Source of the DNA: a virus
DNA: 64,000 bases
IMG/VR virus record: IMGVR_UViG_3300037245_003526
Coordinates: 24,297-88,296 of that record
Strand: one strand, 5' to 3'
The position numbers were made by a program, and so were the translations under genes. Positions 29 through 50,176 of this stretch are shown here, one piece after another; position 1 is the first letter of the stretch, and each line of letters starts with the position of its first letter. A model generated the notes under the pieces. That model searched no databases, was not told where the DNA came from, and saw nothing but the letters and a program-made list of their open reading frames with translations.

Positions 29-406
29 TCACTCTTTATTTTCATCTTTACTACCTTTCCAATTTGAAATTTCATCTATTTTACGTTTGGTTACTCCAGC
101 TACTACACCAGAATCTGAACCTCCATCTAAATCAGTTAATACAAAATTATTCTCTCTACAAATATGTGCTAACTGTCTATTTAATCCAAAATCCTCACAT
201 TCACATATGTGATCACCATTCTTAACTAATTCAATTCCTTCACGAACTTTTTTAAGAATTTCATCATCATCTTCTTCATCAAAATTATCATATGGCATAT
301 CTAATTCATCAAAAGACTTTAATTGGAAATCTTCTGGAATGAAAACCACATATGAGGTTGAACTACTATTAGTTATAAAATCCCCTTTAAGTTTCAAAAC
401 TTCCAC
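29..406 (-). CDS. Member 1 of the MKxKGDF(V/I)TNSSSTS N-terminal-motif paralog family (small acidic protein).
   Basis: The ORF-track start at 406 is GTG. A TTG at 395-397 preceded by AAGGAGGTG gives MKLKGDFITNSSSTSYVV, which matches the other five family members. The C-terminus is a divergent acidic region. Confidence 0.6.
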   Translation of the reverse strand: MEVLKLKGDFITNSSSTSYVVFIPEDFQLKSFDELDMPYDNFDEEDDDEILKKVREGIELVKNGDHICECEDFGLNRQLAHICRENNFVLTDLDGGSDSGVVAGVTKRKIDEISNWKGSKDENKE

Positions 407-938
407 CTCCTTTTAAATTTCCCTTACTATCTTTTTTATTTTTTATATCCTCAAGTATATCTCCGAGAACACTATAGTACATCTTTTTGAATATCGATGA
501 AATACTATTAGCTAACCCTTTGAAGAATCTGACTATAAAATCAGTTGCTATTGACCAGAATAAACATATAGGCCAATATGCCATCCAAAAAGCTACCTTT
601 GAAAACATATCATGAAATTGAGGTACAGCATGTTCATATCCATCTCTAAGATATCTTCTCTTGATATCTTTAAGCTTAAGGTAAAACTTTATTATTGAAA
701 AAACTACAGCACCTACAAAGTATATTGATAATCCAATACCAATTGCCTTAGGATTATCCCTTATATAAGGGATAATAGTTGCATCACCAAAACCAACAAG
801 AAGTAAAGCGAATATTATAAGTGCAGCAGTTGATGGATATCCCCTTTCTTCATATACAAAATATCCAAGAAACAAAATCTCAACAGCAACCAATGACCAA
901 AACCAAAATCCTCCAAATATAAAAAATGCATACAACAT
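387..938 (-). CDS. Polytopic membrane protein, function unknown.
   Basis: 183 aa with about five hydrophobic helices. Its 3' end overlaps the start of the family member downstream of it. Confidence 0.45.
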   Translation of the reverse strand: MLYAFFIFGGFWFWSLVAVEILFLGYFVYEERGYPSTAALIIFALLLVGFGDATIIPYIRDNPKAIGIGLSIYFVGAVVFSIIKFYLKLKDIKRRYLRDGYEHAVPQFHDMFSKVAFWMAYWPICLFWSIATDFIVRFFKGLANSISSIFKKMYYSVLGDILEDIKNKKDSKGNLKGGGSFET

Positions 939-941
939 ATC

Positions 942-1961
942 TTACCATCCTTTCTTATCATAGGGACATACAAATCTATCCTTATTTAAAATTTCTCTAA
1001 AGTTTTTAAAAGACTCTCCTTCATCCCATGCCAATTTTATCATAGCTTTATTTGTAGGTACTATGTTTTTTCCATATTGATCTCTGCATCCAAAAGAGCA
1101 AGGCATTAATCTCATATCTGGTGTAACATAGCAACTCATCCTCGCAGCTTCACAACTATCAACATATAATTCTTCACTTTCTGTAAGTTCTCTTACATTA
1201 GCAACTTTATTTACGAGACAACTATCCAACCCAATTTTAAACTTACTTTTGGGTTGTTCAATTAGTCTAGCAAAAGTTTCAAATTGCAAATCGGTTGGAT
1301 GCCAGTCTAAATTCTTTCCCCTACCTTGGGGTTTAAACAGAAGAAATATCACTGCATTCAATCGTTCTACGTCAACTAGACCATCCCATACGTCATTATC
1401 CTCAATGATACTTATCACATCAGAGAATGTATATTTAGAAAATAACTGATGGATATTAGTCTTAACTCCAGCATCCATTAGACGGTTTAATGCTGAATAT
1501 GTGAAGTCTTTTTTGTACATACTTACTGCGACTGCTCCACAATATTTCTTTGATATTTCTATCTGTTCATCTGTAAGACCATTACCGCTAGTAGTATAAT
1601 TTGGAACAACTCCATTTTCTCTAGCGTATCTAAGGATTTGCTCAAAGTATTCATGATGATTAGGATCACCCCTTCCACCAAGAGCTACTTGCATGACATG
1701 ATCCTTTGATGCATGAATAAGTCTTTTAAAATCCAACAGTGACATATTGGGTTCAGAGTCATCTCCCTGATAACAAAACTCACATTTATTTTTACAATGT
1801 CCCATAATGCCTACATCTATCATACTTGGATACTCTAATGAAAATGGATCAGGTTTTCCATCTTTTCCTGAAAGTAATTCCTGGCCGGTTTTAGTGTTAA
1901 ATAGAATAACATAATCTTCATTCTCAACTTTCTTATCATAAGCAAATACAATTTTCTTCAT
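942..1961 (-). CDS. Radical SAM enzyme with a C-terminal Cys-rich, SPASM/twitch-like region.
   Basis: It has a CxxxCxxC cluster (GHCKNKCEFCYQ) and a Gly-rich GGRGDP motif. The C-terminal region carries additional Cys (DSCLVN, DSCEAARMSC, PCSFGC, FVCPY). Confidence 0.7.
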   Translation of the reverse strand: MKKIVFAYDKKVENEDYVILFNTKTGQELLSGKDGKPDPFSLEYPSMIDVGIMGHCKNKCEFCYQGDDSEPNMSLLDFKRLIHASKDHVMQVALGGRGDPNHHEYFEQILRYARENGVVPNYTTSGNGLTDEQIEISKKYCGAVAVSMYKKDFTYSALNRLMDAGVKTNIHQLFSKYTFSDVISIIEDNDVWDGLVDVERLNAVIFLLFKPQGRGKNLDWHPTDLQFETFARLIEQPKSKFKIGLDSCLVNKVANVRELTESEELYVDSCEAARMSCYVTPDMRLMPCSFGCRDQYGKNIVPTNKAMIKLAWDEGESFKNFREILNKDRFVCPYDKKGW

Positions 1962-1976
1962 AAATTATTCCTTTTC

Positions 1977-2744
1977 TTATAAGTATTCTATTGTTATAGA
2001 TTCACAAAATGGTCTTATATAATAATCAAAGTATCTCTCTTTATCAACATCTTCTGTAGTCAAAAGTTTAATCATTGTTTCTGAAATTTCAATATCTCCA
2101 TAAGCTTTTAAGAATATATTGAATTTACCTTTTGCCCCAGGAATACAAAATAACTTAACATTTTCACTATTCAAAATTTCATCCTTAATTTTCTGCATTG
2201 CTTCAAATACTACTACATTCGGTTTACCCTTAACTCCAAAAGCTAACTTCTTTAACATTTTATCCATTTCTGAATATCTATTAGGCACCCCCTTTATTAT
2301 TACATTATTATAATGAGTTGAAATATATCTTTGTCTATCAGATGAGATAACCATTAGATCATAATTCGCTTGCATATCAATAGAAATAAAGTTATCAGTA
2401 GTTTCCTTTAGAGTTCTTTTAACAATAATTCCATCATAAGCTCTTAAAATTAAATCATCTTCTGAAACATTATTTCTTAAAATATATTCCGAAATAGTAG
2501 AATTAGTGATATTCCTCAAAGCTGGGATAAGATTAGGATGCTCTCTCATTAAAAGACCAATTTGAGTATTTCTTTTTAGTTTATCATCTTTGTCAATATT
2601 AGAAAGATCAAATCCAAGATTTTTTAAAAGTCTGTAGTGACAGGAAGAAATATCATATAAGTAAACATCTTTTTGGACTAATTTGCATGTTGGATTTATG
2701 TCCATAATCCTTTTCCCCATTGATGGGTGAGTAATAGTGCTCAC
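1977..2744 (-). CDS. Hypothetical protein.
   Basis: Long ORF in an operon context. No recognisable motif. Confidence 0.4.
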   Translation of the reverse strand: MSTITHPSMGKRIMDINPTCKLVQKDVYLYDISSCHYRLLKNLGFDLSNIDKDDKLKRNTQIGLLMREHPNLIPALRNITNSTISEYILRNNVSEDDLILRAYDGIIVKRTLKETTDNFISIDMQANYDLMVISSDRQRYISTHYNNVIIKGVPNRYSEMDKMLKKLAFGVKGKPNVVVFEAMQKIKDEILNSENVKLFCIPGAKGKFNIFLKAYGDIEISETMIKLLTTEDVDKERYFDYYIRPFCESITIEYL

Positions 2745-2761
2745 CCATCAATATTAACTAT

Positions 2762-3526
2762 CTACCCATAGGTAGTTAGATGCATGAGAGCATTTTCAAT
2801 TTTCATCAAATGTCCAATATCTATTACACCTTCTCTTTTTTCCATGAACCATTTTATAGCTTCATCTTTAGTTGTGATAGATTCAATGGACTTTCTTATT
2901 TGTGCAAACTGAAGTATTAAAAGCTCAGGATCAATTGGTGCTGCTAAATTTGAAAGTATACCTGTTGTATCAGCACTAATTAATTTAACTCCCTTTTCTC
3001 TTTTCTTCATTTTAGTTCTTGCATACGGAATTAAACTTCCTTCAATATTTATACAGAAATATACAATCAAACCTGATTTCACCCCGTAACATTTCAGAAA
3101 TTTTGCATCACTCATATCATTAGTAATTATAAAACAATTGGTATATATTTCCATTGTAGTACCAGGTAAATCAAGAACAGGAAATTGATTTGCATTTTCA
3201 AATACTTTAATATTTCTTTTATCAAAACCTCGCTTATCTTTTCCCCCTTTCGGATCAGAAATAGTGAATATTAAAGTCTCGTCTGGATCAACTCCTTTAA
3301 CATTTAATCTGACATAATTTACATTATCAAAATTTTCGTTATTAGATTTAAACCATTCAGACAATGATGTAATTCCTATCTCTACAGATTCTTCTTGTAC
3401 AGGATCTGGTATAGATTCTGAAGTATCTTCTTGTCTTATTATTCCACCTGGAAGAGCTTCTTCAGAATTTTCATATGATTCAGGTGTCACATCTCCATCC
3501 TGAATCACTTGAGATAAATTATCCAT
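2762..3526 (-). CDS. Hypothetical protein with an acidic N-terminus.
   Basis: 254-aa ORF. No recognisable motif. Confidence 0.4.
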   Translation of the reverse strand: MDNLSQVIQDGDVTPESYENSEEALPGGIIRQEDTSESIPDPVQEESVEIGITSLSEWFKSNNENFDNVNYVRLNVKGVDPDETLIFTISDPKGGKDKRGFDKRNIKVFENANQFPVLDLPGTTMEIYTNCFIITNDMSDAKFLKCYGVKSGLIVYFCINIEGSLIPYARTKMKKREKGVKLISADTTGILSNLAAPIDPELLILQFAQIRKSIESITTKDEAIKWFMEKREGVIDIGHLMKIENALMHLTTYG

Positions 3527-5496: not shown

Positions 5497-6351
5497 TTAA
5501 AAATAGTTATTAGAATTAAAACCACCATTTATACCCTTATACATCATTGCTACAGCTTCACTTGTGTGAATACTTTCTTCATGTACACATTTGACAATCC
5601 AGTCAGTTACTTTATCATTACTATTTAAACCTTGCGCTATTGCTCTAATAGCGTCCTCAACAAACATCGGATTTTTCCATGCATGTTTAGCAATTGTCAT
5701 TTCATCTTCTCTTTTGATAATAGGATATGGAAGAACCTTAACTGCTTTTTCTACTATATCAACAATATCCTCCAACCATAATGGACCTTTTAGATGATGA
5801 GGATGTCCCTCTACAAGAACATTAGCAAATGATCTTTGTGCATGAGGTGCAGCTCCACGACCTTTTCGAGCAAGGTACATTACTAACTCTTTACTACATG
5901 GACAATATGACGCATATTGAACTCTAACTCCTTGAAAGAATTTAAATTCATCTTCATCCAAAAGTTGTCCTTCAAACTTACAATCATAAAATAATGGAAA
6001 CTCATTATCAGATTTTATTGACTGTTTTATAATTGGTAACTTAAAGTCAAATCTCATATAAACATGATCAGTTTCTAAATTATCCCTAAGATCTTTTAAA
6101 ATATTAAGGATTAATGATTGCTTCAATGGTTCATCAAGATACCCACGTAAAGTTCGTATGCATCTTGACATTGAAATACCCTTTATGTTAGATTCTAAAC
6201 TTGCCCTCATAGAAACATTGGCAACCATATTTCTATAGTTGCCGTTTCTAGATTGTAACATAAACGGAACTTCAACATTTTCAACTCCAACCTGTTGAAT
6301 TGGAATTTTTACTTCAGGTTCGCTTTGTTGAATATCCGGTAAATCGCTCAT
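5497..6351 (-). CDS. Hypothetical protein.
   Basis: 284-aa ORF immediately downstream of RNAP beta. Confidence 0.4.
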   Translation of the reverse strand: MSDLPDIQQSEPEVKIPIQQVGVENVEVPFMLQSRNGNYRNMVANVSMRASLESNIKGISMSRCIRTLRGYLDEPLKQSLILNILKDLRDNLETDHVYMRFDFKLPIIKQSIKSDNEFPLFYDCKFEGQLLDEDEFKFFQGVRVQYASYCPCSKELVMYLARKGRGAAPHAQRSFANVLVEGHPHHLKGPLWLEDIVDIVEKAVKVLPYPIIKREDEMTIAKHAWKNPMFVEDAIRAIAQGLNSNDKVTDWIVKCVHEESIHTSEAVAMMYKGINGGFNSNNYF

Positions 6352-6492: not shown

Positions 6493-9400
6493 CTACCTTT
6501 CTACACCTATGGCTTTTAAATAAGCATTTAATAATCTTACAGACTCTGGAATTATAGATTGTTCTTTATCATCTTTCATAAAATCAGAATCTATCTTTGT
6601 CCTTATAAACTCATTTTTCAAATCAATACAATCACTCTTAGTAGTTAGAAACTCAAACAAATTTGCAGAAGCATCATGACCTGTTAAACACGCCATTTCC
6701 ATTTCTCCGCTTCTTTGACCTCCACCATGTTTTCTTCCTGCTAAAGGTTGTAATGTTTTTCTTGCATATGATCCTATTCCTCTAGCTGATAATCTTGTTT
6801 CAGAAATATGAACCATTTTGAAAAAGTACATATAACCTACAGCTATTCTATTCTTAATAATTTCTTTTGCTATAGGTTCGTACACTTCTCTTTTGAATTC
6901 AGTATTTGTATATTCAAGTGCTTTTCTGGTAACATCTAAGTCTACTGATTCAAATGGTGGTTGAATTAAAACAATACTATCAATAAACTTCTCAGTAATT
7001 TCTCCTGGAAGCTGTTGATTAAATTGTTCATAATACCATCCACCATCGGTTCTGTCAATAATTTTGATATAATTAAGTAAGTATAATTTTAACATTTTTT
7101 GTATTTGAGCATCATCTAATCCTTCAACTCTTTTAATTTTTCTATCAAGAATTAATTTCATATATTTTCTTAAATCAGAAAGTGACATAGCTAAATGTAA
7201 TTCATAAAGCTGTCCAATATTCATTCTGCTGATGATACCCAGAGGGTTTATACATATATCAACATGACGACCATCAGGTAATTGTGGCATTTTTTCATGA
7301 GGAACAATTGTTGAAATTACTCCCTTATTTCCATGTCTGTTTCCAACTTTATCACCAACCTGAATAGGTCTGAAAAATATTGCGAATAACTCTACGAAAA
7401 TTCCATTAATTTTTTCATTCTTAATTTTGAATTTTCCTATGTTTGCATGTGTGTCTAATTCATTATCTTTGATAAACTTTATTGCTTCTTTTTTAGGAAG
7501 GTGTTCTGATATTACCCTTCGTAAATCAGTCTCTTTCTCTTGCTGATCTGTAATTTTTTTCTCTACCCATTCTTTATATTCAGGAACATCTTCATTCCAT
7601 TCATTAGCAAATATATTACACTCTGTGATATACAAATTTTTTCTTGCATATAAATTCTTTTCCTGTTTGAAAATATCAAGAAACTCTTGCTGATTAGAAG
7701 GTATAGTTTTTATAATGGCATATGTATCATCCTTTTTAATTCTATCCTCTCTAGTAGGTAGTGGTTTAAAAACATTTTTATCCAAACTTAATAAGAGTTT
7801 ATGAGGTGGAATTGTAAATGACAAATCCATATAATGTACTGATGTAAGTACATTATCATCTCTTAGTCTTTCAGATATTACTATACCATCCTCATAGTTA
7901 TAACCGTACCACTCCATTACAGCAGTAAGTAAATTTTTTCCAATATTAATCTTATTGTCAGTACAATAATTACTCTCTGCTATTATCTGACCTTTACTTA
8001 CTTTGTCACCAAATTTGACATAAATTTTTAAGACATCAAGATTTGAAATATATATCTTTCTATAAGATATATTAAAAATATCTACTTCTTCATTATCATA
8101 AGCAAGAATTAGATATTTTTCATCTAAATAAACTACTTCACCATCCTCCTTTGCAACTTTAACAAACTGTGTTTTATCAGTATATAATCCTTCGCAACCA
8201 GATTGAATCATTGGTACATCAAAATTTTGTAACATGATTGCTTGTCTCATTTGTGATGATGCCATTTGAAGTCTGGTTTGATCATCGTGCTCTAAAAAAG
8301 GAACCATTGAAACTGGAATTGAAATTGGTTGCTTTTCAAGATATTCATTTGTAAAACGTAAATTTTCATCTAACGGAACATTTGGAATTAAGTTTTGTAA
8401 CACTCCACAATTTTCCCTATCAGGAGTATCCACCGGACAAATTCTACCAAACATTGTATCATTAATATCTCGTAAATGCTCAGGTACATTTTGTTTATTA
8501 AAACCTCCAGGACCAACTAAACTCGTTCTACTTAACTTTGTGAGTTCTTCTATTGGATTTATGGAAAAGTCAAATTGAATTATATCTGAAACATTACATT
8601 CTGAAAGAATTTGTGTAGAATTTACATTAAACTTTGGTTGTCTGGCAGTTCTATTAGTAATACAGAAATCGAAGATTATTTTACTTACCTTTGATAATAT
8701 CATATATTCAAAACAACGTATTCTCTTGTTCTGCATGTCTGTATCATCAAAACCTCCAGATTCCATTGTATAGATTAATTCATCAAGAACAGAATCAGTA
8801 TGAAAAAACCTTGAAGTCATAACATCACACTTCATAATAAGGTCTAATGCAAAAACTAAATCTTCACCCTTACCTTTGGCATTATATTTTGAATAATGTC
8901 TTCCTAACTCTTTAATAATATCATCTTGTGAAGTTCTCTTATTTTCATCATAAAAATCTAAAATATCTTTTAAGAAAGCACCATACATTCCATCATTACT
9001 AAAACTATCAGAATTCAAAGAAGATAGTTTAAATTTATTATTCATTTCCTCTACACCAAAATAAGCAAACATTACTAAATGTAAAGGAACCTTTCTTCCT
9101 AAAATACTAATATAAGTATATGGTGAATCTTTTCTATCTTCAAAAACCATTATTTGAGTAACGTTGGTTCTAAGTTTTATACTCTTTCCTCTTGTAACAA
9201 CTGGAATATCAAAAAACTGAAACTGAGGAATTTTTTTCCTGCCATTTATAATTATATAATTATTATCAATAAGTTTTGGAATTTGTATTGATAAATTTAT
9301 TAAAGACGTCCCTTTCTGAAGTCTAATTGATAATGTTTTTTTCAATGTTCTGCTTATATCACCTGTAGAAAATCTTGGTTCCTTAAATTCACATTCCACA

Positions 9401-9552
9401 ACTTCAAAACCAATATCAGCCACAGGTGCTATAATCACTTTAATATCTTCTAATAAAGAACTATATTCATTAGCTCTTATATCAAAAATATTCTTCTCTG
9501 CAAGTTTATAAACTGGATTAGCTATATTCAAAAGTACTCCTCCTTTCAACAA
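6493..9552 (-). CDS. Multisubunit RNA polymerase beta-subunit homolog (set 1).
   Basis: It carries GDKVGNRHGNKGVIS (the beta C-terminal catalytic-region signature) and MASSQMRQA (an NMQRQA-like motif). 1019 aa. Confidence 0.8.
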   Translation of the reverse strand: MLKGGVLLNIANPVYKLAEKNIFDIRANEYSSLLEDIKVIIAPVADIGFEVVECEFKEPRFSTGDISRTLKKTLSIRLQKGTSLINLSIQIPKLIDNNYIIINGRKKIPQFQFFDIPVVTRGKSIKLRTNVTQIMVFEDRKDSPYTYISILGRKVPLHLVMFAYFGVEEMNNKFKLSSLNSDSFSNDGMYGAFLKDILDFYDENKRTSQDDIIKELGRHYSKYNAKGKGEDLVFALDLIMKCDVMTSRFFHTDSVLDELIYTMESGGFDDTDMQNKRIRCFEYMILSKVSKIIFDFCITNRTARQPKFNVNSTQILSECNVSDIIQFDFSINPIEELTKLSRTSLVGPGGFNKQNVPEHLRDINDTMFGRICPVDTPDRENCGVLQNLIPNVPLDENLRFTNEYLEKQPISIPVSMVPFLEHDDQTRLQMASSQMRQAIMLQNFDVPMIQSGCEGLYTDKTQFVKVAKEDGEVVYLDEKYLILAYDNEEVDIFNISYRKIYISNLDVLKIYVKFGDKVSKGQIIAESNYCTDNKINIGKNLLTAVMEWYGYNYEDGIVISERLRDDNVLTSVHYMDLSFTIPPHKLLLSLDKNVFKPLPTREDRIKKDDTYAIIKTIPSNQQEFLDIFKQEKNLYARKNLYITECNIFANEWNEDVPEYKEWVEKKITDQQEKETDLRRVISEHLPKKEAIKFIKDNELDTHANIGKFKIKNEKINGIFVELFAIFFRPIQVGDKVGNRHGNKGVISTIVPHEKMPQLPDGRHVDICINPLGIISRMNIGQLYELHLAMSLSDLRKYMKLILDRKIKRVEGLDDAQIQKMLKLYLLNYIKIIDRTDGGWYYEQFNQQLPGEITEKFIDSIVLIQPPFESVDLDVTRKALEYTNTEFKREVYEPIAKEIIKNRIAVGYMYFFKMVHISETRLSARGIGSYARKTLQPLAGRKHGGGQRSGEMEMACLTGHDASANLFEFLTTKSDCIDLKNEFIRTKIDSDFMKDDKEQSIIPESVRLLNAYLKAIGVER

Positions 9553-9932
9553 TCATGACCCCTTGAGTGTATAAGAAAATTCATCTCACTGTATTCTCTT
9601 GCTATTTTTCTCCTAATATTTTGCTCTATATTTTTTCTAACGCGTTCATAAAAATACTTTTCAGCATCGTATCCAAAAATAATATCACCTTCTTTAGTAA
9701 CCATATGAATTTTAGCAATAAGAATTTTTACATTAATTTTTTGCATAAGTGTTTGTATCAACGTAGCTGAAATATCAGGAGATAGAGCAGCAGAAAAAGA
9801 TATTATTAAAACTTCTGGTTCTAAAGATAATACCGCAATCTCAGAAACTATAGATTGATATATACCATTTTCTATAATCTGTATTTTAGTAGAACAATGT
9901 TCCTTAATTATTTTTTTAATTTTTTCAATCAT
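9546..9932 (-). CDS. Small hypothetical protein between RNAP beta-prime and beta.
   Basis: The ORF-track start at 10112 overlaps beta-prime by 170 nt. An internal Met (MIEKIKK) preceded by AGGGGAGATTTT at about 9932 is a more plausible start. Confidence 0.35.
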   Translation of the reverse strand: MIEKIKKIIKEHCSTKIQIIENGIYQSIVSEIAVLSLEPEVLIISFSAALSPDISATLIQTLMQKINVKILIAKIHMVTKEGDIIFGYDAEKYFYERVRKNIEQNIRRKIAREYSEMNFLIHSRGHDC

Positions 9933-9942
9933 AAAATCTCCC

Positions 9943-12672
9943 CTAAACTCGCTCACCACATAATATTTTATCCATAATCCCTTTATAAAGTCCTGGTTGT
10001 AATATCCCTTTAATAATATGTTTTTTAGGATTTGAGAAAGCAAGACCCATAAGCCAGCTTTCATATGAGGGGACGGTTTGAACGGAATGAAACTGAGGAA
10101 CCAGTTTTTCACGATTTTTAAGAAGACGCCATTTATAAATTCCTACCCACATTAATTGAGAAACTATACACTCAAAGTGAACATGGTTAATAGTACGAGA
10201 AGTATTATAAGTTGTATAAAGATCATCAACTAATTTTGGTATGTCAACATTTTTACCAAACTTATGTAGTAATTTAGATGCCATTGATAAATCACTAACA
10301 ATATCCTGTTGTTTCAACTCATCTACTTCTTCACCTTCTCTTATATTTGCAACTCCACTAGTATGAAATGTTCTTAAAACTAATTGAGTATTACATTCAC
10401 CCATTGATTGAGCAGCAATAATTCCAACAAACTTTGTTTTAAGATCCTCATGTAATTTTCCATAACAAGTATGACATAATTTTTCATTTTTACAATATAT
10501 GGGACTTCTAACATTTATTGTTTTTCCAATAAAGTCCATATAATTATCTTTTGTAATAAGTACTAACTCATCATCTTCAGACATCCATTTATTTATAAGT
10601 TGTTTAGCTTTCTTATCATCACGTATAAATACTTTTAATAAATCCGTTGTACCACAATCTTCAATATCATAACTCAGTAATAAATTTGCTGCTGTAAAAA
10701 TCAATTTTCTTGATAAATAACCAGAAGCTCCAGTATTAAGAGCAACATCAAGAAGACCTTTTCTACTACCATAAGTGGAATTAAAGAAACCTTTTGGGGT
10801 CAAACCACTTATAAAACTATTTTTAATTGGTTCAGGAATTATTTGACCATTAAAATTTGATACAAAACCCCTTGATAAAACTATCTGTTTAGCTTGATCC
10901 CAACTACCTCTAGCTCCAGATTCAATCATATATGAGTATTTAAATCCACTTCTTAAAATATCCATAAGGTCTTTATTCTCAGTTGAGATTTTGAAAACTT
11001 GTTCTCTTATGGACCCAGACGAGTAAATATCATCTCTGACAGTATCAATACCTTCGATATGACAATCATCGAGAGATAGAGTTGGACCGAATAGGGTTGA
11101 GTATTTGAATCCTACGAACTTGATTTTGTCCAACACCTCTGCTGTAGTAGCTAAATTATACTTTCGATTAATATCATTTAATATTCTAATCAATCCTTTT
11201 GAATTAGTAGGTTCAATAATAAGTGGATAATCTTCTGGAAAACATTCATTGAATATTTTAATATCCTCTTGAATAGTTTCCCCTTTATATTCAACTTTTC
11301 TACTTAGTTTTGGAAATTTATTATTAGTAAGTGCATATATACCAAGAACCATATCCTGACTAGGTGTTGTAGTTAAACTGCCATTAGATGGGTTCTTTAA
11401 ATTCTGAGTAATTAACATTTTTTCAATTGCTTCTTGTTTAGTTTCTTCGCTAATAGGAACATATATGGCCATCTGATCTCCATCAAAATCAGCATTAAAT
11501 GGTGGGCAAGATAATGGATGAATTCTAATAACATTATCTAAAGATATTTTAATATAGTATGCTAACATACTAAGTTTATGGAGAGATGGTTGTCTGTTTA
11601 ATATACAAACTTCTCCACTACATATTTCTTCACATAAGGAAAATAAAACTGATGAGTTTGAAGCTATACACTCATCAATAAAATCAATAGATTGATTTAG
11701 CAATTTAAACTGTCCTGTATCTATTAGTTTCTTTGCTACTTCAATCTTAAAGATTTCTAAAAATATAATATAAGGAATTGAACATTGATCAATGTTTAAT
11801 GTTGGATCTGGTACTATGACTGCTCTACCAGAAAAATCTATTCTTTTACCAAGTATGTTTCCCCTGATAAGACCTTCTTTTTTAGAAAGTTTTTCAAGAA
11901 TATAAGCATATAATTCATTTACATCTTTTTGAAGTTGTCTGAAATGATTATAGAATAAGGTATTATCTCTTCTGACATCAATCAGCGATTCTTCAATAAC
12001 TTCTTTCTTTGTAAGAACCTGCATGTAATACTTATTAATCTTATCTGCATATTGTTCACTTCTTAAGGATCCTTTAGTAGCAGGTCTTAAATCAGCAGGT
12101 AATACAATAATACGATCTATTATTAATTCATCAATATTATCATATACAATCTGCCATGGTGAATCTTCCTCCTCGTCAATTGCTTTCTCTGCTAACTTAA
12201 ATACAAGCTCATGTATAGCTTCTAACCCATACCATGCTTCTCGTCCTTCTTCAATTTCATCTGAATTAGTAACTATTAGATCATTATTATCCTCATGTTC
12301 ATCATCCAAAACAAGGACAGATTTTTCATCTCTCATTAGCTTTTTTAAAGCTTCTTTTAATGAGGTACCAGCAAGATCAACTACCAAATCATAAAATACT
12401 GGATTGACCACAGGCACCGGAAGAACTATTTTTGCAAACCTTCTTCTTCGTTCATCACTATTAACAACATCAACACTACATATATTACATGTACCTCCAG
12501 AACCAGATGTTCCATAATATGTACCGCATTGACATGTGTAGTTTTTTAGTGGACCAAATATTTGTTCGCTAAATAGTCCTTCCGGATGAAATTTTTTCTT
12601 ATCCATTACCTTAGTTGTAGTTATTTCAGGAAGGTTTTCTGTAAATTCTGTAAACTTTAGTAGACTCGGCAT
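9943..12672 (-). CDS. Multisubunit RNA polymerase beta-prime-subunit homolog (set 1).
   Basis: It has an N-terminal zinc finger (CQCGTYYG...CNICS), the catalytic NADFDGD, and a trigger-loop region IIAAQSMGECNTQLVLRTFHTSG. 909 aa, ending soon after the trigger loop. Confidence 0.85.
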   Translation of the reverse strand: MPSLLKFTEFTENLPEITTTKVMDKKKFHPEGLFSEQIFGPLKNYTCQCGTYYGTSGSGGTCNICSVDVVNSDERRRRFAKIVLPVPVVNPVFYDLVVDLAGTSLKEALKKLMRDEKSVLVLDDEHEDNNDLIVTNSDEIEEGREAWYGLEAIHELVFKLAEKAIDEEEDSPWQIVYDNIDELIIDRIIVLPADLRPATKGSLRSEQYADKINKYYMQVLTKKEVIEESLIDVRRDNTLFYNHFRQLQKDVNELYAYILEKLSKKEGLIRGNILGKRIDFSGRAVIVPDPTLNIDQCSIPYIIFLEIFKIEVAKKLIDTGQFKLLNQSIDFIDECIASNSSVLFSLCEEICSGEVCILNRQPSLHKLSMLAYYIKISLDNVIRIHPLSCPPFNADFDGDQMAIYVPISEETKQEAIEKMLITQNLKNPSNGSLTTTPSQDMVLGIYALTNNKFPKLSRKVEYKGETIQEDIKIFNECFPEDYPLIIEPTNSKGLIRILNDINRKYNLATTAEVLDKIKFVGFKYSTLFGPTLSLDDCHIEGIDTVRDDIYSSGSIREQVFKISTENKDLMDILRSGFKYSYMIESGARGSWDQAKQIVLSRGFVSNFNGQIIPEPIKNSFISGLTPKGFFNSTYGSRKGLLDVALNTGASGYLSRKLIFTAANLLLSYDIEDCGTTDLLKVFIRDDKKAKQLINKWMSEDDELVLITKDNYMDFIGKTINVRSPIYCKNEKLCHTCYGKLHEDLKTKFVGIIAAQSMGECNTQLVLRTFHTSGVANIREGEEVDELKQQDIVSDLSMASKLLHKFGKNVDIPKLVDDLYTTYNTSRTINHVHFECIVSQLMWVGIYKWRLLKNREKLVPQFHSVQTVPSYESWLMGLAFSNPKKHIIKGILQPGLYKGIMDKILCGERV

Positions 12673-12984: not shown

Positions 12985-13442
12985 TAAAAATAATTAATTG
13001 GAAGTCTTCCTGCTTCTCCTTCATATCTGATATATTTTTCATCAAAATCCGGCCAAAAATGTGGCGAGTTTAAATTCCAAATCCTTAACATAAACCTTAT
13101 TGCCCATAATTGCTGTTTTAATAATTTCTCTTTCCCACTAATTACCATTCCTTTTAAATCATCTGAAATACAAAAATCCGCCTTTTTACAAAAATATTTA
13201 AAGCTTCCGCTAACTACTTTTCCTTTTGGAATATATGAGTTTGGATGTGCAACATCATATAATGTTATTCCTTCAAATTCATTATCAAATTTATTATTCA
13301 CAAGAATATCATATTTACTTATAATATAATTTTGATGAACCCACTTAATATCATATGTATTTTTTTTCCCTGTATGAAAATCATCAAATCTAATAAGTGC
13401 AGGTTTAATTGTTTCTCTCATTGTTTGTAATATTTCACTCAT
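12984..13442 (-). CDS. Hypothetical protein. It is a weak E2/UBC-like candidate.
   Basis: The ATG at 13440-13442 overlaps the TAA of the upstream E1-like gene as TAATG, a classic coupled-translation arrangement. The track's longer start at 13478 is probably wrong. It has a mid-protein HPN motif followed by a Cys (AHPNSYIPKGKVVSGSFKYFC) at roughly the position seen in UBC folds. Confidence 0.3.
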   Translation of the reverse strand: MSEILQTMRETIKPALIRFDDFHTGKKNTYDIKWVHQNYIISKYDILVNNKFDNEFEGITLYDVAHPNSYIPKGKVVSGSFKYFCKKADFCISDDLKGMVISGKEKLLKQQLWAIRFMLRIWNLNSPHFWPDFDEKYIRYEGEAGRLPINYF

Positions 13443-14329
13443 TATGCACCTCCTGTCTCTGGAATTAATTCTATACATATTCTTTCTTCATTTATTCCTA
13501 TTGTGACTAAATATTCTCTATAAGTAAATACATTATTAGCCATTTCTGATAGAATTCTCATAACATCTTCTGGTGATTGTAATTCATGCTTAGAAATAAT
13601 ATATGAACATAAAGAATCTTCTTTTCTACCAACATAAATAGGTATAGAAGAATCTTTATTTGCTTTTAATATCGCAGGTAAATTTTCAAAATGTCCTGTT
13701 AATTTTTCTTGCCCCTCAAAAGAAATATCATAAATTAAATCCGGTTGATTTTTATATTTTTTAACAGCTATCTGAAATTTATCATCATCATCATCACCCT
13801 TCAAATCTATACTATATTTAATTTCTCTTTCAATAAGTTCCTTAATTTTTCCTGTTCTAACATGTTCATATAACTTAAATGCTGCTCTTCTTATTTCATC
13901 CTTTGAAAAATCACTAGTATAAGTACCCCGTTTTGAAGTACCATATGTTACATATTTATTACAATCAATAACTAACTTATTGAATGAAATATAAAATCTA
14001 ATATCAATATAACCACTCCTATCACAGCTTTCATCTCTACAATCAAAAACCATATCATATGGAATTCTTTTACATGTAGGTTCATCAAATTTTTTATATA
14101 TAGGGTTTACCAATAAATCATCAGTCCTATCTTTTATCATATCACAAAGCGCATATACTTTTTTACGTTTTAAATCTCTAACTCTATAAATAGAGTTTTC
14201 TAAATTTGATTTTTCTACAAAATCATTATCAATAAATGAAAGTTTTTGTAATCCCGGTAAATGAGACATAAACTCAGCGAAGAATCCACCTAACGAACCA
14301 ACACCTATTATTAATACACTTTTAGTCAT
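13442..14329 (-). CDS. ThiF/MoeB/E1-like adenylation-domain protein (E1-like A). Its nucleotide-binding motif is degenerate.
   Basis: VLIIGVGSLGG (GxGxxG), then IDNDFVEKSNLENS where canonical E1s have SNLNRQ, then DMVFDCRDESCDR (DxxDN-like). A GGGAGTG ribosome-binding site precedes it. Confidence 0.6.
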   Translation of the reverse strand: MTKSVLIIGVGSLGGFFAEFMSHLPGLQKLSFIDNDFVEKSNLENSIYRVRDLKRKKVYALCDMIKDRTDDLLVNPIYKKFDEPTCKRIPYDMVFDCRDESCDRSGYIDIRFYISFNKLVIDCNKYVTYGTSKRGTYTSDFSKDEIRRAAFKLYEHVRTGKIKELIEREIKYSIDLKGDDDDDKFQIAVKKYKNQPDLIYDISFEGQEKLTGHFENLPAILKANKDSSIPIYVGRKEDSLCSYIISKHELQSPEDVMRILSEMANNVFTYREYLVTIGINEERICIELIPETGGA

Positions 14330-14411
14330 TCACAATTCACTCCCTTCATATTTTATGATCCCCACTTATAAATAAGCAGGGATCATAAATACTTTTAAAT
14401 TTTAGCAACTA

Positions 14412-14915
14412 TTAACCAACTCTAAATTCATCTATTTCGCGATCGGTTGGGTTTGGTCGATAATAAGATTTCCAAATAAACTGTTTTAAAGCTATTTCCA
14501 TTGGATGTAAATATGGTAAATCATATTGTACATATTTTTTAGAACCATTTGTAATAACCTTAAAATCAATATTCTTGAATTCTCTTAATTTATCTACAAA
14601 ATCACGTTCTTCCTTAATAGTCTTTACTTTTTTTCTTCTTAAATCAAAATAATCATATTCAGTATAATCCTTAATTTTTTTGATTTCCAGGCTTGTGCAT
14701 CGTTTACCTAAAGCATTTCTCGCTCTTTTATATGCTCTTTTTCTTCCTTCTTTCTTATTGAACTGATCATATATAGAGCATATAGAAATACCTCGTGCAA
14801 CTAATAGATTAGATTCTTTTTCTAAAAATAAACACACCGTAACCGAGTTACCAACACATGGAGACTTTTCGTAGTAATAAACATCACGAATATCTGTCAT
14901 GGCTTTGTCAATCAT
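14412..14915 (-). CDS. Hypothetical basic protein inside the Ubl-like operon.
   Basis: 167 aa with a strong GGAAGGAGA ribosome-binding site. No clear motif. It contains Cys and a basic patch. Confidence 0.4.
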   Translation of the reverse strand: MIDKAMTDIRDVYYYEKSPCVGNSVTVCLFLEKESNLLVARGISICSIYDQFNKKEGRKRAYKRARNALGKRCTSLEIKKIKDYTEYDYFDLRRKKVKTIKEERDFVDKLREFKNIDFKVITNGSKKYVQYDLPYLHPMEIALKQFIWKSYYRPNPTDREIDEFRVG

Positions 14916-16191: not shown

Positions 16192-17214
16192 CTAAAATAT
16201 ACTAGATTCATCAGGTTCATCAGGTTCTTCTTTAAAACCTAATTTCTCTAATTGGTCTTCATCAAGTTCCTCAAAAATTTCCTGCATAAGAAGCTCTGTT
16301 TTATGCGCTTTATAAGGACACTGTTCACATGGATTCCATTCCTCATTTTTAATTCTGTAACCAGAATCATTTACACTTTCAGGTTTCAGTCTGAATGGAT
16401 TAAAATCATGTACTTTAAGTTTAGTTTCCTCAGGCAAGACTTTTTTAGCTTCTTCTTCATACTTGATTTTATCAACCATCTTTAACCATTTTTTTGGAAA
16501 TTTAATATTTCCGTCTATCACCCCCTTTACTTTATACCCAAGAGATGTCTTAGATGGTCTAACATCCTCTACTTGTTCATATTTTCCCTCCATAAGCGAC
16601 CATTTTTTATAAACTTCTCCAGGAATTTCAAACTCTTCAAGTTTGATTCCATCAATATAATTAGTTGGATCGCAAGTAAATCTTGTTCCATTTGCAACAA
16701 TAGAACAAGAGATTGATATTAAATCATTATTCATATTACCAACTGTAATATGAAGTCCATCAAAATCAACTTCATCTGTATCATCTGTTCCAGAATGAAA
16801 TGCTGACATTCCTGCGTGACTATGTATAGTACCTATCCTTTGATATCCTTTAATCTGTTCATTAAGATAAGCTACAGATCCACTACTAGTTTTCTGTAGA
16901 GGAACCTGAACTTTAAATTTACCAGATTTTTTATTAAAATGTATTACAGTGTTTGCCTCATTACTATTATAATCCTGATATACTTTCTTGAAAAAAGTAA
17001 TAATCTTTCCAAAATCTTCAGCTGAAATTCGTTTGATATTCATTTTTGCTTGAGGTATTATATCATCAGAAAGAAATGAAATCTTATTAATAGGTACTAT
17101 ACTTTCCATGAAACCTACTTTTTTCTTTAAGTAAACTTTATCCTTACAAATAATATATAAAACATCATCTGAAGGCATCTCATTTACACCATCATTTATA
17201 TGTACTTTAAACAT
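16192..17214 (-). CDS. JAB/JAMM (MPN+) family metalloprotease with a C-terminal extension.
   Basis: IHSHAGMSAFHSGTDD matches HxHx7Sx2D, with an upstream Glu. 340 aa, GGGAGGTG ribosome-binding site. Confidence 0.7.
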   Translation of the reverse strand: MFKVHINDGVNEMPSDDVLYIICKDKVYLKKKVGFMESIVPINKISFLSDDIIPQAKMNIKRISAEDFGKIITFFKKVYQDYNSNEANTVIHFNKKSGKFKVQVPLQKTSSGSVAYLNEQIKGYQRIGTIHSHAGMSAFHSGTDDTDEVDFDGLHITVGNMNNDLISISCSIVANGTRFTCDPTNYIDGIKLEEFEIPGEVYKKWSLMEGKYEQVEDVRPSKTSLGYKVKGVIDGNIKFPKKWLKMVDKIKYEEEAKKVLPEETKLKVHDFNPFRLKPESVNDSGYRIKNEEWNPCEQCPYKAHKTELLMQEIFEELDEDQLEKLGFKEEPDEPDESSIF

Positions 17215-27721: not shown

Positions 27722-27937
27722 CTATCCTTCGTAAGTAATTCTTTTTTCTTTATTCCAAAGTTCGTTAGGATAACACATGTTTATCATCCTTTCCGCTTCT
27801 TCAAAAGTATCATAAGAGTACGGTTCAGATTTCTTTCCAGATGGTTTAACTTTATGCCACCCCCTCTCACCATCATTATTGATACTGAAAACTTCCATAT
27901 AAAATTTAATGACCAATACCTCCTTAGTATCCTTCAC
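27722..27937 (-). CDS. Hypothetical small protein.
   Basis: 71-aa ORF. Confidence 0.3.
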   Translation of the reverse strand: MKDTKEVLVIKFYMEVFSINNDGERGWHKVKPSGKKSEPYSYDTFEEAERMINMCYPNELWNKEKRITYEG

Positions 27938-28241
27938 AGTCCACTATTTGTATTCCTTCTGTTTCCTCCAAAAATTCCATCAATACTTCATCCTGTACAC
28001 AAAGATAATGAACCTCTTTACCTTTAGCTTTCATTTCAATTGCTTTTCTATGAAATTTATCAGATAAGAACCAACCTTCTTCCACTGCACCCTTCTCTAT
28101 TTGTTCATCAGTTAACTTTATAATCCTATAAAGTTTAGAAGCATTGAAGTTAGAAATTATATCACCCCCTTCTTTTCTTGAATCTGAAAGTAAAAATGTA
28201 ACAGAGCTACTATTGGTTACAAAATCTCCTCTTAATTTCAT
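27924..28241 (-). CDS. Member of the MKxKGDFVTNSSS family, with the variant motif SSSVTF.
   Basis: It starts MKLRGDFVTNSSSVTFLL. Confidence 0.6.
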   Translation of the reverse strand: MKLRGDFVTNSSSVTFLLSDSRKEGGDIISNFNASKLYRIIKLTDEQIEKGAVEEGWFLSDKFHRKAIEMKAKGKEVHYLCVQDEVLMEFLEETEGIQIVDCEGY

Positions 28242-28249: not shown

Positions 28250-29053
28250 CTATTCACATTTCTTCTGTTTTAAACCACTCCATCCATCAGATACACCAAG
28301 AGGAAATATCCTATCATTTACTGAGACACATAAATTACCATCCCTACATAAAATATTAGTTTCAGCTTTAATATTAGTTTCACATTCCATTGGTACTATA
28401 TCACCCCAATCATCAATGGCACCAATAGCAACTTCAGCTCCATTATAAAGTATATAAGCTTTCTTTTCCCTGCATATTATATCAATCATAGATGAGGAAG
28501 CTGATTTCTGTGCAATAGTATCCAACTTTTTTGCAAGAATATTTATACCCTTTTTGACTTGAGCAATACGTCTCTCAGTAGCATATTCTTTTACAGTTTT
28601 TTTAGCTGTATCAACAACAATCTCTTTTGCTGCATTTTTAGCTACTTTTTCTGAATATGCTTTGAAGTTTGGTATAGCTATAGCAGCCAATATAGCTATA
28701 ATAGAAATTACTATCATCAGCTCTATTAAAGTAAATCCACCTCCCCAACTACCACCTCCCTCACTTGGAGGACTTTCCAACTCACATATCTGTTTTTCAA
28801 ATTTTTCGATGTCTTTCTCACACTTTTTAATCTTTATGGTTACTCTAACTTCTTGTTCCATAGCATCCATTGTAGCTTTAACTTCATTTAATTTTTTAAC
28901 TTTATCTTTTAACTTCTTAACTTTATCCTCAACAGTCTCGGATATAAATTCACCTTGGGTAATTAAATTGACAATTCTTTTACCAACAAATTTCCATAAA
29001 CCCCAAGCAACAAATCCAATGAAAATTAACCCTATTATTCCCTGAGCAAACAT
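28250..29053 (-). CDS. Membrane-anchored coiled-coil protein with an internal type IV prepilin-like motif and a Cys-containing C-terminal domain.
   Basis: N-terminal TM helix, then a K/E-rich coiled coil, then GGGSWGGGFTLIELMIVISIIAILAAIAIPNF. That last stretch is a canonical class III signal with G|FTLIE, about 105 aa in from the start. The C-terminus has multiple Cys, as in pilin D-regions. Confidence 0.5.
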   Translation of the reverse strand: MFAQGIIGLIFIGFVAWGLWKFVGKRIVNLITQGEFISETVEDKVKKLKDKVKKLNEVKATMDAMEQEVRVTIKIKKCEKDIEKFEKQICELESPPSEGGGSWGGGFTLIELMIVISIIAILAAIAIPNFKAYSEKVAKNAAKEIVVDTAKKTVKEYATERRIAQVKKGINILAKKLDTIAQKSASSSMIDIICREKKAYILYNGAEVAIGAIDDWGDIVPMECETNIKAETNILCRDGNLCVSVNDRIFPLGVSDGWSGLKQKKCE

Positions 29054-29142
29054 ATTTTTATCTCCTTTTAATTTTAGAAAATGGGATCCCTAATTAAAGG
29101 GACCCCATTCTTATTAAATATATTTAATACTCTATAATTTAA

Positions 29143-30441
29143 CTATTTTTTTACTGCTCCCTTTGGTATATCCAGATTAAGACCAAGCTGCTTCAAAGCT
29201 ATAAGAGAAAGAACATCCTGCATAGCCAAAGCATCTCCATCTACTCCAGATTTTCCACTACCACCCATCATAACTGTTGGAACAGGTCTTATTGAAAAAG
29301 CATTTGCCCATACTTTCTGTACTCTTTCATAAGTTTTAAGCTTTTGTTCAAGAGCACCATCTGCTCTAAGGACAAGTTTCTTTCTTTCTGATTCACCCTG
29401 ACCCAATAGAATCAGCTCAGCTTTCTTAAATGCAGCAGCTTCCTTATCCAGCTTATTAACTGTCTTTCTTTGCTCACCACCAATTACAGCAACTTGTTTA
29501 TCCCTTTCAGCATTAAGTTCCTGTACCTCTTTATTCTTTTGAGCTTCAACTACAGCACGAACCTTCTTCTGCTCTTCCTCATATTTTGCTTTAGCAACCT
29601 TTGCTTTTCCCTGTGCCTCAATAGTAAGCTTCTCCTGCTCCGCTTTTTTGGCTTCAGTTATAGCAGTTGCAACAGCCATTAAGGATGCCTGTTGAGTAGC
29701 GATCTGTTCTTTAACCTTAGGTGCATATTCAAAAGTTTTAATCTCAAAGTTCTTGAGAGTAATACCTGTCCCCTCTAAAGGATTAGAAAGATATAGAGGT
29801 TGAGAGTTAGGTTTTCCATCTACCGTTTTAATAATTTTGAAAGTTTTATGAACCTTCTCACCAGATATAGGATCGATTACATCTCTTTCCTCATCCATTG
29901 TCTCATATAGACCATTCTCAACCTGGTCTCGTGCCCATGTATTATAATCAATTCTCTTAGAAGCATAAGACTCCTGAGCAGTCATCATATTTGCTGTCAT
30001 CCTCAGAGCATTACGAATAGTTGGAAGAATCATTTTATTTTGTACTTCTTCTGGAGATGCGTAACCATCTTCTGTTATAAGCTCTATAGCATCCTTTGCT
30101 CCAACAGGTAAAAGTACACGAGCAGTTCCTGAGATTTTACATAAGGAACCATCCACAAATCGTACCTCTATTGATTGATCATAACTTCCACCTTCTTCTA
30201 CATCATGTGTAAAGAAGAATGTAAATGCCTTTGGCCAGGTGTCAATGTCACCCCATAATTGAAGCCAAAGTCCTGGTTGCATTTTAGCAGACATTTTTCC
30301 TGTTACGGCTGCCTGCTTTATCTGATATGTACCTTTTCCTACAGTGCTAACAATTTTAGAAGCACATATCAAGGCTATAATAATACATATAACTGATATT
30401 ACTCCAATAACTACACCCCTGTTAATCTCTTGTTTTGCCAT
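29143..30441 (-). CDS. SPFH/band-7 (flotillin/HflK-like) membrane protein.
   Basis: N-terminal TM helix, an SPFH-like core (QPGLWLQLWGDIDTWP...SIEVRFVDG), and an EA-rich coiled coil (KKAEQEKLTIEAQGKAKVAKAKYEEEQKK). Confidence 0.5.
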   Translation of the reverse strand: MAKQEINRGVVIGVISVICIIIALICASKIVSTVGKGTYQIKQAAVTGKMSAKMQPGLWLQLWGDIDTWPKAFTFFFTHDVEEGGSYDQSIEVRFVDGSLCKISGTARVLLPVGAKDAIELITEDGYASPEEVQNKMILPTIRNALRMTANMMTAQESYASKRIDYNTWARDQVENGLYETMDEERDVIDPISGEKVHKTFKIIKTVDGKPNSQPLYLSNPLEGTGITLKNFEIKTFEYAPKVKEQIATQQASLMAVATAITEAKKAEQEKLTIEAQGKAKVAKAKYEEEQKKVRAVVEAQKNKEVQELNAERDKQVAVIGGEQRKTVNKLDKEAAAFKKAELILLGQGESERKKLVLRADGALEQKLKTYERVQKVWANAFSIRPVPTVMMGGSGKSGVDGDALAMQDVLSLIALKQLGLNLDIPKGAVKK

Positions 30442-30533
30442 TTTTCAAAATTCTCCTTACATAAGTTTTTTAATTAAATAACTTCACAATTTCACAATTT
30501 AACATAGTTTTCTACATTCAGTTTTTATTTTTC

Positions 30534-31238
30534 TTAATTACCTCCTTTCCCAGCTTCTGGTTTTAAATATAGATTAATATTAAAAGTACCTTTTTGTCGA
30601 TTTAATGACTTTGTTTCTTTATGTCCATGAATGGTTAGTCTTCCGTCTATTTCCTTATTCCATACCTCTCTTTTTCTAAGTTCTTCAGCAGAATAACAAT
30701 CAGAGGTATTTGCATAATAACCCATAGGATCTCCACCGTTCCAACCATCTCCTCTAGTTTCATTAACTGTTTGATCATATTCAACCATTATTTTTTCACT
30801 ATCAAAATTTTCAAATATTTTTGACATAATTAATTTAAATGTATGATAAGGCATTTCAGTTTTTGGTGAAGTTGTATTTGGTGATAATCCTTCATACTCG
30901 ATTTTTATTTTTGATCCATTTTTTTTAACTCTAACTTTATATGAACCACATGCACCACAATTTTCACAATCTATAACTTTACACATTTCTTTATCTTTCA
31001 GAGTATATCCATCTTCGAACTGGTCAGGATTTCTAATGAAACCTTCAAATTCAAGATTATCATGTTTAATTTTTAGAAATGATGAAAAACCTTTGAATTC
31101 AAGATCATTGCTCATAACTGCAGAAATAAATGATGGAAGATCTATTTCCTCATCTGTAAAAATATTTGTTTTTCCAATTCCTTTTAAAACAAATGATGTC
31201 GAACTACTATTAGTTACAAAATCTCCTTTTATTTTCAT
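30534..31238 (-). CDS. Member of the MKxKGDFVTNSSSTS family, long form.
   Basis: It starts MKIKGDFVTNSSSTSFVL and has the C-terminal GDGWNGGDPMGYY motif shared with 21992-22690. Confidence 0.6.
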   Translation of the reverse strand: MKIKGDFVTNSSSTSFVLKGIGKTNIFTDEEIDLPSFISAVMSNDLEFKGFSSFLKIKHDNLEFEGFIRNPDQFEDGYTLKDKEMCKVIDCENCGACGSYKVRVKKNGSKIKIEYEGLSPNTTSPKTEMPYHTFKLIMSKIFENFDSEKIMVEYDQTVNETRGDGWNGGDPMGYYANTSDCYSAEELRKREVWNKEIDGRLTIHGHKETKSLNRQKGTFNINLYLKPEAGKGGN

Positions 31239-50174: not shown

Positions 50175-50176
50175 TT

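Follow-up and report, generated by a model that had tools for sequence, protein, structure and literature searches.

A Shared N-Terminal Start Marks a Large Protein Family Genetically Linked to Radical SAM Enzymes in Phages and Bacteria

Introduction

Why should several proteins of one virus begin with the same short run of residues and then continue with different bodies? This question is raised by a 64,000-nucleotide stretch of viral DNA (positions 24,297 to 88,296 of the IMG/VR virus record IMGVR_UViG_3300037245_003526; hereafter, the window), in which a sequence-only reading had described a six-member family of minus-strand genes with a conserved N-terminal block, here called the tag, on unrelated C-terminal bodies. 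The seven to eight genes of this phage start alike because they are members of one very large family. Judged from sequence, the shared 16-residue start is the mark of this family, which is previously undescribed. In both phages and bacteria, the family is genetically tied to radical S-adenosylmethionine (SAM) enzymes, and this tie makes it most likely that the shared N-terminus is a tag that these enzymes recognise and chemically modify.

The Tag in the Window

All six of the open reading frames (ORFs) noted earlier are present on the minus strand (Table 1). Nevertheless, the count of six was too low. By combining a degenerate codon-aware pattern with a six-frame peptide scan, a seventh copy was found that leaves the window at its left edge, and in an overlapping public contig (L202) this copy is followed by an eighth, of 119 aa, which lies just outside that edge. 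The start of copy 1 also had to be moved. It is most likely the TTG at 397-395, 5 nt past the Shine-Dalgarno sequence, and not the GTG at 406, so that the protein begins MKLKGDF....

The conserved DNA core reported for the family is confirmed, as the 26-nt sequence GGAGATTTTRTAACYAAYAGTWSYTC has six matches with at most one mismatch, while 100 shuffles gave none. Over codons 2-15, pairwise differences between the seven window copies comprise 92 synonymous and 59 non-synonymous changes, and Ser12 and Ser13 alternate between the AGY and TCN codon families. This switching and the synonymous excess thus bear out the proposal that selection acts on the peptide. The acidity described for the downstream sequence is equally clear, with isoelectric points of 4.3-5.7 for the bodies and a median of 6.55 for the window. 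Among GenBank phages, no nucleotide relative was found for this region, and tblastn with a long form and with copy 4 returned only spurious matches.

A Large Family Defined by Its First Residues

The motif is not confined to this phage. In an exhaustive search of 1.84 billion cluster representatives with a profile of the long form (E<=1e-3), the family comprised 1,955 representatives, mostly of 80-180 aa, and nearly every match began at residue 1. The consensus of residues 1-16, M-K-(I/L/V)-(K/R)-x-(D/G/S)-F-(V/I)-(T/S)-N-S-S-S-(T/S)-S-(F/Y), is the sole family-wide feature. Among 284 members retrieved, N10, S11 and S12 are conserved in 100%, S13 in 99%, F7 in 98% and T9 in 97%; K2 and K/R4 are near-invariant, and in 278 of them the invariant Asn occupies position 10. 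In other viral contigs, 20 kb holds one to six copies, which invariably share a strand and are frequently arranged in tandem.

Scans of the six window proteins against Pfam, NCBIfam and PADLOC gave nothing significant. No description of the motif, of the family or of its link to radical SAM enzymes was found in the searchable literature, and the paper on phages KP15 and KP27 holds no data on their tag and radical SAM genes.

Some members depart from the usual single-module form. Four database proteins (P0088, P0094, P0115 and P0120) hold two tag-plus-body modules in tandem within a single polypeptide. They were considered as proof that the block can be internal and were set aside, since three of the four keep an internal Met-Lys-x-Lys/Arg and may therefore be read-through, stop-recoding or gene-calling artefacts; P0088, which is without an internal Met, may be a true fusion. 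In addition, a Lachnospiraceae contig from a metagenome-assembled genome (L038, 45% GC) encodes at 1301-3307 a 668-aa protein with the tag start MKVRTDFVTNSSSTSY... and a BRCT domain. Here, the tag heads a far larger protein with ties to DNA metabolism.

Linkage to Radical SAM Enzymes in Viral Loci

When family-anchored viral loci were scanned for ORFs with a CxxxCxxC motif, 11 of 17 were found to hold, within a 10-kb range, a radical SAM ORF of ~331-353 aa on the same strand that abuts or overlaps a family gene. The window carries such a pair twice. The enzymes fall into two clades, each represented in the window: type 1 (rSAM1) and type 2 (rSAM2). Family genes lie immediately downstream of type 1 in 7/7 loci. 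Of the 12 informative type 2 loci, 7 have a family gene immediately upstream and 9 have one no farther than 1 kb away.

The type 1 linkage was measured from the side of the enzyme in non-redundant rSAM1-anchored loci from metagenomes and IMG/VR. A family gene is found at most 1.5 kb downstream in 76 of 110 loci (median gap, 14 nt). With the upstream side as an internal control, tag genes occur within 1.5 kb in 63/92 loci downstream and in 6/88 upstream (odds ratio ~30, p ~8e-19); their density is 0.45 per kb downstream vs 0.03 per kb upstream. None of these counts is phylogenetically independent, given that a single jumbo-phage clade supplies most of the loci. A functional linkage between the tag family and the radical SAM enzymes is very probable, and this recurrent pairing newly and strongly supports the suggestion that the block is a leader or tag read by a maturase.

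Other genes recur at these loci. In the window, a small multi-pass membrane protein is encoded between rSAM1 and the tag-gene cluster, and similar small transmembrane proteins follow the enzyme elsewhere (L064, L076, L131 and L175). At rSAM1 loci with no tag gene downstream, a small transmembrane protein, a ~203-aa "...FYKxSKxKP...GNMNDDDP..." protein and a ~160-aa signal-peptide-like protein recur. These could be alternative partners or substrates.

Linkage in Other Lineages

In a scan of 185,579 genomes, only seven loci of the family were found, three of which are on Deltaproteobacteria/Desulfomonile contigs of 56-64% GC (L035, L037 and L039). Each carries between one and three family genes (MKIR.DFVTNSSSTSY...), and a radical SAM gene encoding 358-383 aa comes directly after them or overlaps them; in L039, for example, the tag gene is at 8001-8411 and the enzyme gene at 8401-9486. 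At 32-36% identity (E ~1e-50), the encoded enzyme is a full-length orthologue of the rSAM1 of the window, and its SPASM CxxCx5Cx3C segment is complete. The flanks are cellular and differ from locus to locus: TsaD and a CDF transporter in one; a phosphonate ABC transporter in another; an AddB-like nuclease, ABC-F, LysR and a Ser/Thr kinase in the third. Thus, these loci have in common only the tag-radical SAM pair, and no virion genes surround it.

Among 50,697 deposited phages, rSAM1 homologues are present in 173 records and a ~171-aa class of tagged proteins in 175 (for instance, Kiwi_ER50 CDS0126, MKIRSGFVSNSSSSSFIV...). The genus breakdown is identical for the two sets, which include RB43, RB16, Lw1, KP15, KP27, Miro and Matisse. 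A single outlier with the enzyme, Vibrio jumbo phage D479, has the tagged protein MKIRNGFVSNSSSSSFVIT... encoded 1.4 kb upstream of it. Taken together, the gene linkage is seen in four lineages.

The ~171-aa class, which elsewhere follows rSAM1, has a counterpart in PHROGs, where phrog_7397 ("unknown function") corresponds to this one body class of the family. Its profile matches the class over the full length (E 7e-14 for the L014 member and 7e-6), and it is present in the RB43/RB16/KP15-like cultured phages. However, it covers only one class, carries no functional annotation, and window copies 3 and 4 match it weakly and over the tag alone (E 0.017-0.022).

The bacterial loci also bear on another reading of the block, namely, that it is a propeptide that sends proteins to the prohead or another compartment and is then clipped off, as in the internal proteins of phage T4. 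In T4, a ~10-residue N-terminal peptide, the capsid-targeting sequence, is likewise common to unrelated phage proteins and is about as long as the flexible tail predicted below; the many copies in a jumbo phage and the acidic, cargo-like bodies would fit as well. Nevertheless, the tag is present in bacterial chromosomal cassettes without virion or capsid genes, and the phage genes lie among replication and recombination genes instead of head genes; capsid targeting is therefore disfavoured. Moreover, the T4 peptides are virus-only and end in a prohead-protease site, whereas the tag has no Glu-type (T4/phiKZ-type) protease site and is tied to a radical SAM enzyme, a linkage that capsid targeting leaves unaccounted for. 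This part of the sequence-only reading is now very improbable.

Nature of the Enzymes

The enzymes have a radical SAM core with CxxxCxxC and a C-terminal SPASM/twitch domain, as SPASM maturases do. In Pfam, the Radical_SAM cut-off is passed by rSAM2 of the window and narrowly missed by rSAM1. The full length of type 2 can be aligned with the PapB and QhpD-type SPASM maturases, at scores under the curated cut-offs. Type 1 orthologues match the SPASM domain and have MftC as their best full-length match; the SPASM model is passed by Miro gp164, and TIGR04085 by the enzyme of L039. Overall, the best NCBIfam matches are MftC, PapB, GeoRSP and WgkB. As no curated family reaches its cut-off, these enzymes are, by sequence comparison, an uncharacterised SPASM/twitch subfamily.

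PDB sequence searches with single radical SAM sequences found nothing. A type 1 profile has SuiB, SkfB, PqqE and BtrN as its nearest solved relatives, and the alignment to SuiB leaves out the N-terminal RiPP recognition element (RRE) of that enzyme, RiPPs being ribosomally synthesised and post-translationally modified peptides. In rSAM1, the N-terminal extension is short, at ~45 aa. At the other end, the rSAM1 enzymes of AT-rich phages are without the CxxCx5Cx3C segment and keep four C-terminal Cys, while the bacterial and L007 orthologues retain it (alignment A5). From this cysteine pattern, the AT-rich phage enzymes probably carry one auxiliary cluster, not two.

Bodies Behind the Tag

When the first 20 residues are left out, the bodies fall by BLASTP into groups shared between phages, and each window copy has body-level orthologues elsewhere. 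The bodies had been called unrelated, which agrees with the comparisons between classes but not with those within them. Copies 1 and 4 form one class (S1) that aligns over its full length and has a second conserved block, D-x-G-S-x-x-G, and copies 2 and 6 form one long class with GDGW(D/N)GGDPMGxY. Between the four window classes, no homology was detectable after removal of the N-terminal ~19 residues (hhalign probability <14%), in agreement with the view of one short module on different bodies. The motif GW(D/N)GGDPMGxY is indeed restricted to the two long forms inside the window, while elsewhere it is family-wide in long and mid-length forms; the long class is homologous to the mid-length class (hhalign 97%). 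The class of copy 5, with its ...GxGGY* ending, is homologous to the bacterial members (hhalign 89%, E 2e-6). In terms of sequence, the bodies form four or more classes with no recognisable relation between them, and these classes are old and conserved across phages.

A C-terminal aromatic residue was considered as a universal second site, by analogy with the mycofactocin precursor MftA, and rejected, since it does not hold for the family as a whole (31/284). The residue is prominent in just two groups, namely, the 110-130-aa GxGGY* class (13/49) and the bacterial members.

The position of the genes is also conserved. Individual paralogues occupy conserved sites beside SbcD, SbcC and GyrB, and a long form precedes rSAM2 and a WYL_2-like gene both in the window and in L032. 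Since each paralogue class is conserved, and often syntenic, across phages, the idea of a diversifying arsenal does not hold. In two distant genomes, a gene of the copy-4 class touches or overlaps the SbcD/Mre11 start (27087/27086 in the window and 8390-8393 in L032), an arrangement that suggests translational coupling with the SbcCD nuclease genes. The acidity of the bodies and their neighbours (SbcCD, gyrase, helicase, and one BRCT fusion) hint at mimicry or binding of nucleic acids or DNA enzymes.

Structural inference is based on two AlphaFold2 monomer models. Their mean predicted local distance difference test (pLDDT) scores are 86 (copy 4) and 78 (copy 2), and the bodies are confidently folded. 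In both, residues 1-10 have pLDDT <50, strand beta1 begins at residue 13-15, and residues ~13-18 form this first strand as part of a sheet. Thus, the models describe residues 1-10 as a flexible tail ahead of a class-specific, acidic folded body. In fold comparisons, the predicted folds either had no PDB match or showed a weak likeness to AdoMetDC. There was no Pfam match to a sulfatase or AdoMet_dc signature in the six proteins, and PDB sequence searches with family profiles were likewise empty.

Two further explanations draw on these models. The first is self-processing, in which cleavage at N10|S11, by Asn cyclisation or pyruvoyl-type serinolysis, would remove a decapeptide and leave a reactive N-terminus before beta1, with the radical SAM enzyme acting elsewhere. 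The AdoMetDC likeness and the pLDDT boundary are all that point this way. AdoMetDC-type proenzymes are cut at an internal X|Ser site with a beta chain of ~60 aa, whereas a site at 10/11 would reduce the "beta chain" to a decapeptide, and there is no Pfam or PDB sequence match; self-processing is quite unlikely. The second holds that the block is no more than a conserved initial strand and turn in a superfamily of rapidly evolving domains, with the neighbouring enzyme being inherited synteny without functional coupling. Residues 13-18 do lie in a sheet in both models, and the linkage data come largely from one strongly syntenic phage clade. However, in 98% of members the block opens the protein at residue 1, as ordinary domains do not, the predicted body folds differ, and the linkage recurs in unrelated backgrounds with a 15-fold downstream/upstream asymmetry. 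A plain structural motif is, in consequence, a quite improbable explanation.

A Proposed Tag for Radical Chemistry

We infer, with moderate confidence, that a RiPP-like radical SAM maturase acts on the tagged proteins as its protein-sized substrates and that the tail is both the recognition element and the site of chemistry. This reading is favoured because an odd, invariant F-V-T-N-S-S-S is located at the N-terminus, in a tail that is predicted to be exposed, on unrelated folds, and is paired with an RRE-less radical SAM enzyme of the peptide-maturase type. In such a scheme, the block would couple its proteins to the co-encoded SPASM/twitch-type enzyme, which would bind the exposed tail and most probably modify the invariant F-V-T-N-S-S-S by radical chemistry. 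Candidate reactions are an oxidation of Ser of the formylglycine type, as in the anaerobic sulfatase-maturating enzyme (anSME), or a cross-link involving Phe, Asn, Ser or Thr, as in triceptides and streptide. One or two maturases would serve many tagged proteins, and the overall logic would be a protein-scale analogue of the RiPP precursor/maturase or sulfatase/anSME pairs.

Several known systems offer partial precedents. The nearest profile relatives are the SPASM maturases of RiPPs (SuiA/SuiB for streptide, MftA/MftC for mycofactocin, PqqA/PqqE, and SkfA/SkfB), which share the CxxxCxxC and SPASM/twitch architecture. In these systems, too, the substrate-type gene is linked to that of the maturase, with partner genes that abut the enzyme gene and of which there may be several per enzyme, and a short conserved N-terminal sequence is carried by otherwise variable partners. 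By contrast, the RiPP partners are peptides of 20-80 aa, whereas the partners here are folded proteins of 100-240 aa with several folds, and the conserved part is the extreme N-terminus with its invariant small polar residues. The phage enzymes also lack the half of SPASM that contains CxxCx5Cx3C.

A second likeness is to anSME, an RRE-less SPASM enzyme that acts on full-size proteins at a short motif near the N-terminus with Ser as the target. The architecture is also similar, with the radical SAM motif near the N-terminus of an enzyme of ~340-380 aa. Nevertheless, the tag (consensus F-V-T-N-S-S-S-T-S-(F/Y)) has no C/S-x-P/A-x-R, the bodies are not sulfatases, and the anSME model TIGR03942 scores far under its cut-off. 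For the sharing of one enzyme by many substrates, there is the example of the prochlorosins, in which one maturase, ProcM, handles many ProcA precursors; as here, many paralogues with divergent remainders share an N-terminal recognition sequence and are served by one or two enzymes. However, ProcM is a LanM and not a radical SAM enzyme, and the remainders are hypervariable cores there and conserved orthologous classes here.

The same gene linkage would be expected if the tag only docked proteins on the radical SAM enzyme, without being modified, while the bodies steered the enzyme to DNA-metabolism proteins or nucleic acid, or regulated or chaperoned it. The paralogues at conserved sites beside SbcD, SbcC and GyrB and the BRCT-bearing tagged protein of L038 would suit an adaptor or partner of this kind. 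On the other hand, the small polar T-N-S-S-S is absolutely invariant, as is typical of chemical sites more than of docking peptides, and the bacterial cassettes consist of tag proteins and the enzyme only, with no third conserved gene that could be a target. An adaptor role is, for these reasons, unlikely.

Various observations weigh against the tagged proteins being maturase substrates. As substrates, they would be unusually large and folded: members have 80-250 aa and confidently predicted bodies, which is not what is expected of a short ribosomal leader/core peptide. Pfam and NCBIfam scans of the radical SAM enzymes and their neighbours found no RRE or PqqD domain, leader protease or exporter, in a search that did not cover remote RRE-like folds. 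In addition, the linkage is not obligate, as 26 of the 110 rSAM1 loci have no tag gene in their flank, and its counts lean on a single clade (see above). In RB43/KP15-like phages, the tag and radical SAM genes are 18-20 kb apart, at 70373-70885 and 90119-91240 in KP15 (NC_014036); in Klebsiella phage Miro, for instance, the enzyme has no adjoining tag gene, and the tag gene is ~20 kb off. The synteny block around rSAM2 (SbcC ... rSAM2, WYL_2 ... 861-aa protein) also occurs without family genes in L019 and L022, and the type 2 linkage is therefore less secure. Finally, the low pLDDT of the tail could equally be explained by a missing partner of any kind.

If the tagged proteins are nonetheless substrates, they may belong to a new post-translational system in which a portable 16-residue tag marks full-size proteins of unrelated folds for a dedicated SPASM radical SAM enzyme, which could install, where beta1 begins, either a cross-link or a "warhead/cofactor" in the form of a Ser-derived carbonyl. 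Such a system would be hugely expanded in the jumbo-phage clade and would also exist in T4-related phages (RB43, RB16 and KP15) and in Deltaproteobacteria. This wider proposal is held more tentatively.

Features of the Window and Its Genome

The members of the family found in the window and the genes of the linked enzymes are listed in Table 1.

Table 1. Tag genes, radical SAM genes and an adjoining gene in the window (all on the minus strand).
Feature	Position	Strand	Description
Copy 7	1..45	(-)	First 15 codons only (MKIKSDFITNSSSTN...); full protein of 147 aa on L202
Copy 1	29..397	(-)	122 aa; TTG start behind GGAGGTGG; class S1, as copy 4
Small multi-pass membrane protein	387..938	(-)	183 aa; between rSAM1 and the tag-gene cluster; membership in the system uncertain
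Radical SAM type 1 (rSAM1)	942..1961	(-)	339 aa; CKNKCEFC and four conserved C-terminal Cys (reduced SPASM/twitch); family genes directly downstream
Radical SAM type 2 (rSAM2)	20947..21978	(-)	343 aa; CNLKCEYC ... CEGCNWTC; 14 nt downstream of copy 2
Copy 2	21992..22690	(-)	232 aa; long form with GGWDGGDPMGDY; body beta-rich in the AlphaFold2 model
Copy 3	22700..23035	(-)	111 aa; class S3; orthologues in at least 8 other contigs
Copy 4	27087..27497	(-)	136 aa; class S1; abuts the SbcD/Mre11 start (26079-27086), likewise in L032
Copy 5	27924..28241	(-)	105 aa; class S4 (...GxGGY*-type ending; here ...DCEGY*); homologous to bacterial proteins adjacent to the radical SAM gene
Copy 6	30534..31238	(-)	234 aa; long form with GDGWNGGDPMGYY

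Several other features of the source record (~244.5 kb, 30% GC), for which deposited phages offer no nucleotide relative, were observed. A conserved block follows rSAM2 on the minus strand of the window (13442-17214 and 17207-19792) and also in L019, L020 and L022; it encodes a WYL_2-like protein (by Pfam), a ~861-aa protein, a ~340-aa protein, and one or two proteins of ~226-295 aa that appear JAB-like and ThiF/E1-like (GxGxxG) by eye. This block could be a phage module for ubiquitin-like conjugation. A 267-aa protein encoded at 28250-29053 (-) matches Pfam N_methyl, the N-terminal methylation motif of type IV pilin-like proteins, above the cut-off in its middle (residues 106-127) and not at its N-terminus. 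Two sets of genes like those for the beta and beta' subunits of multisubunit RNA polymerase, each with NADFDGD, are located at 6493-12672 and 45055-52522 (-); two such sets are typical of phiKZ/AR9-style jumbo phages. Finally, genes for a GTP cyclohydrolase I type 2 (GCHY-1) and a PTPS/QueD-like protein, at 5497-6351 and 32968-33444 (-) and named from Pfam matches on homologous contigs, hint at a 7-deazaguanine-type pathway of DNA or nucleotide modification.

Implications

To our knowledge, nearly all known roles of radical SAM/SPASM maturases concern small peptides (RiPPs), apart from a few cofactor or enzyme maturations. If the proposed role of the tag is true, SPASM maturases would act on thousands of folded phage and bacterial proteins, and radical peptide chemistry would reach a wide range of proteins. 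Two "hypothetical" genes, conserved in ~175 cultured phages of Klebsiella, Enterobacter, Cronobacter and E. coli used in phage-therapy work, would likewise acquire a function. As the hosts of RB43, RB16 and KP15 are tractable, the tag hypothesis is directly testable there. For the jumbo-phage clade itself, it would account for one of its largest families of paralogues.

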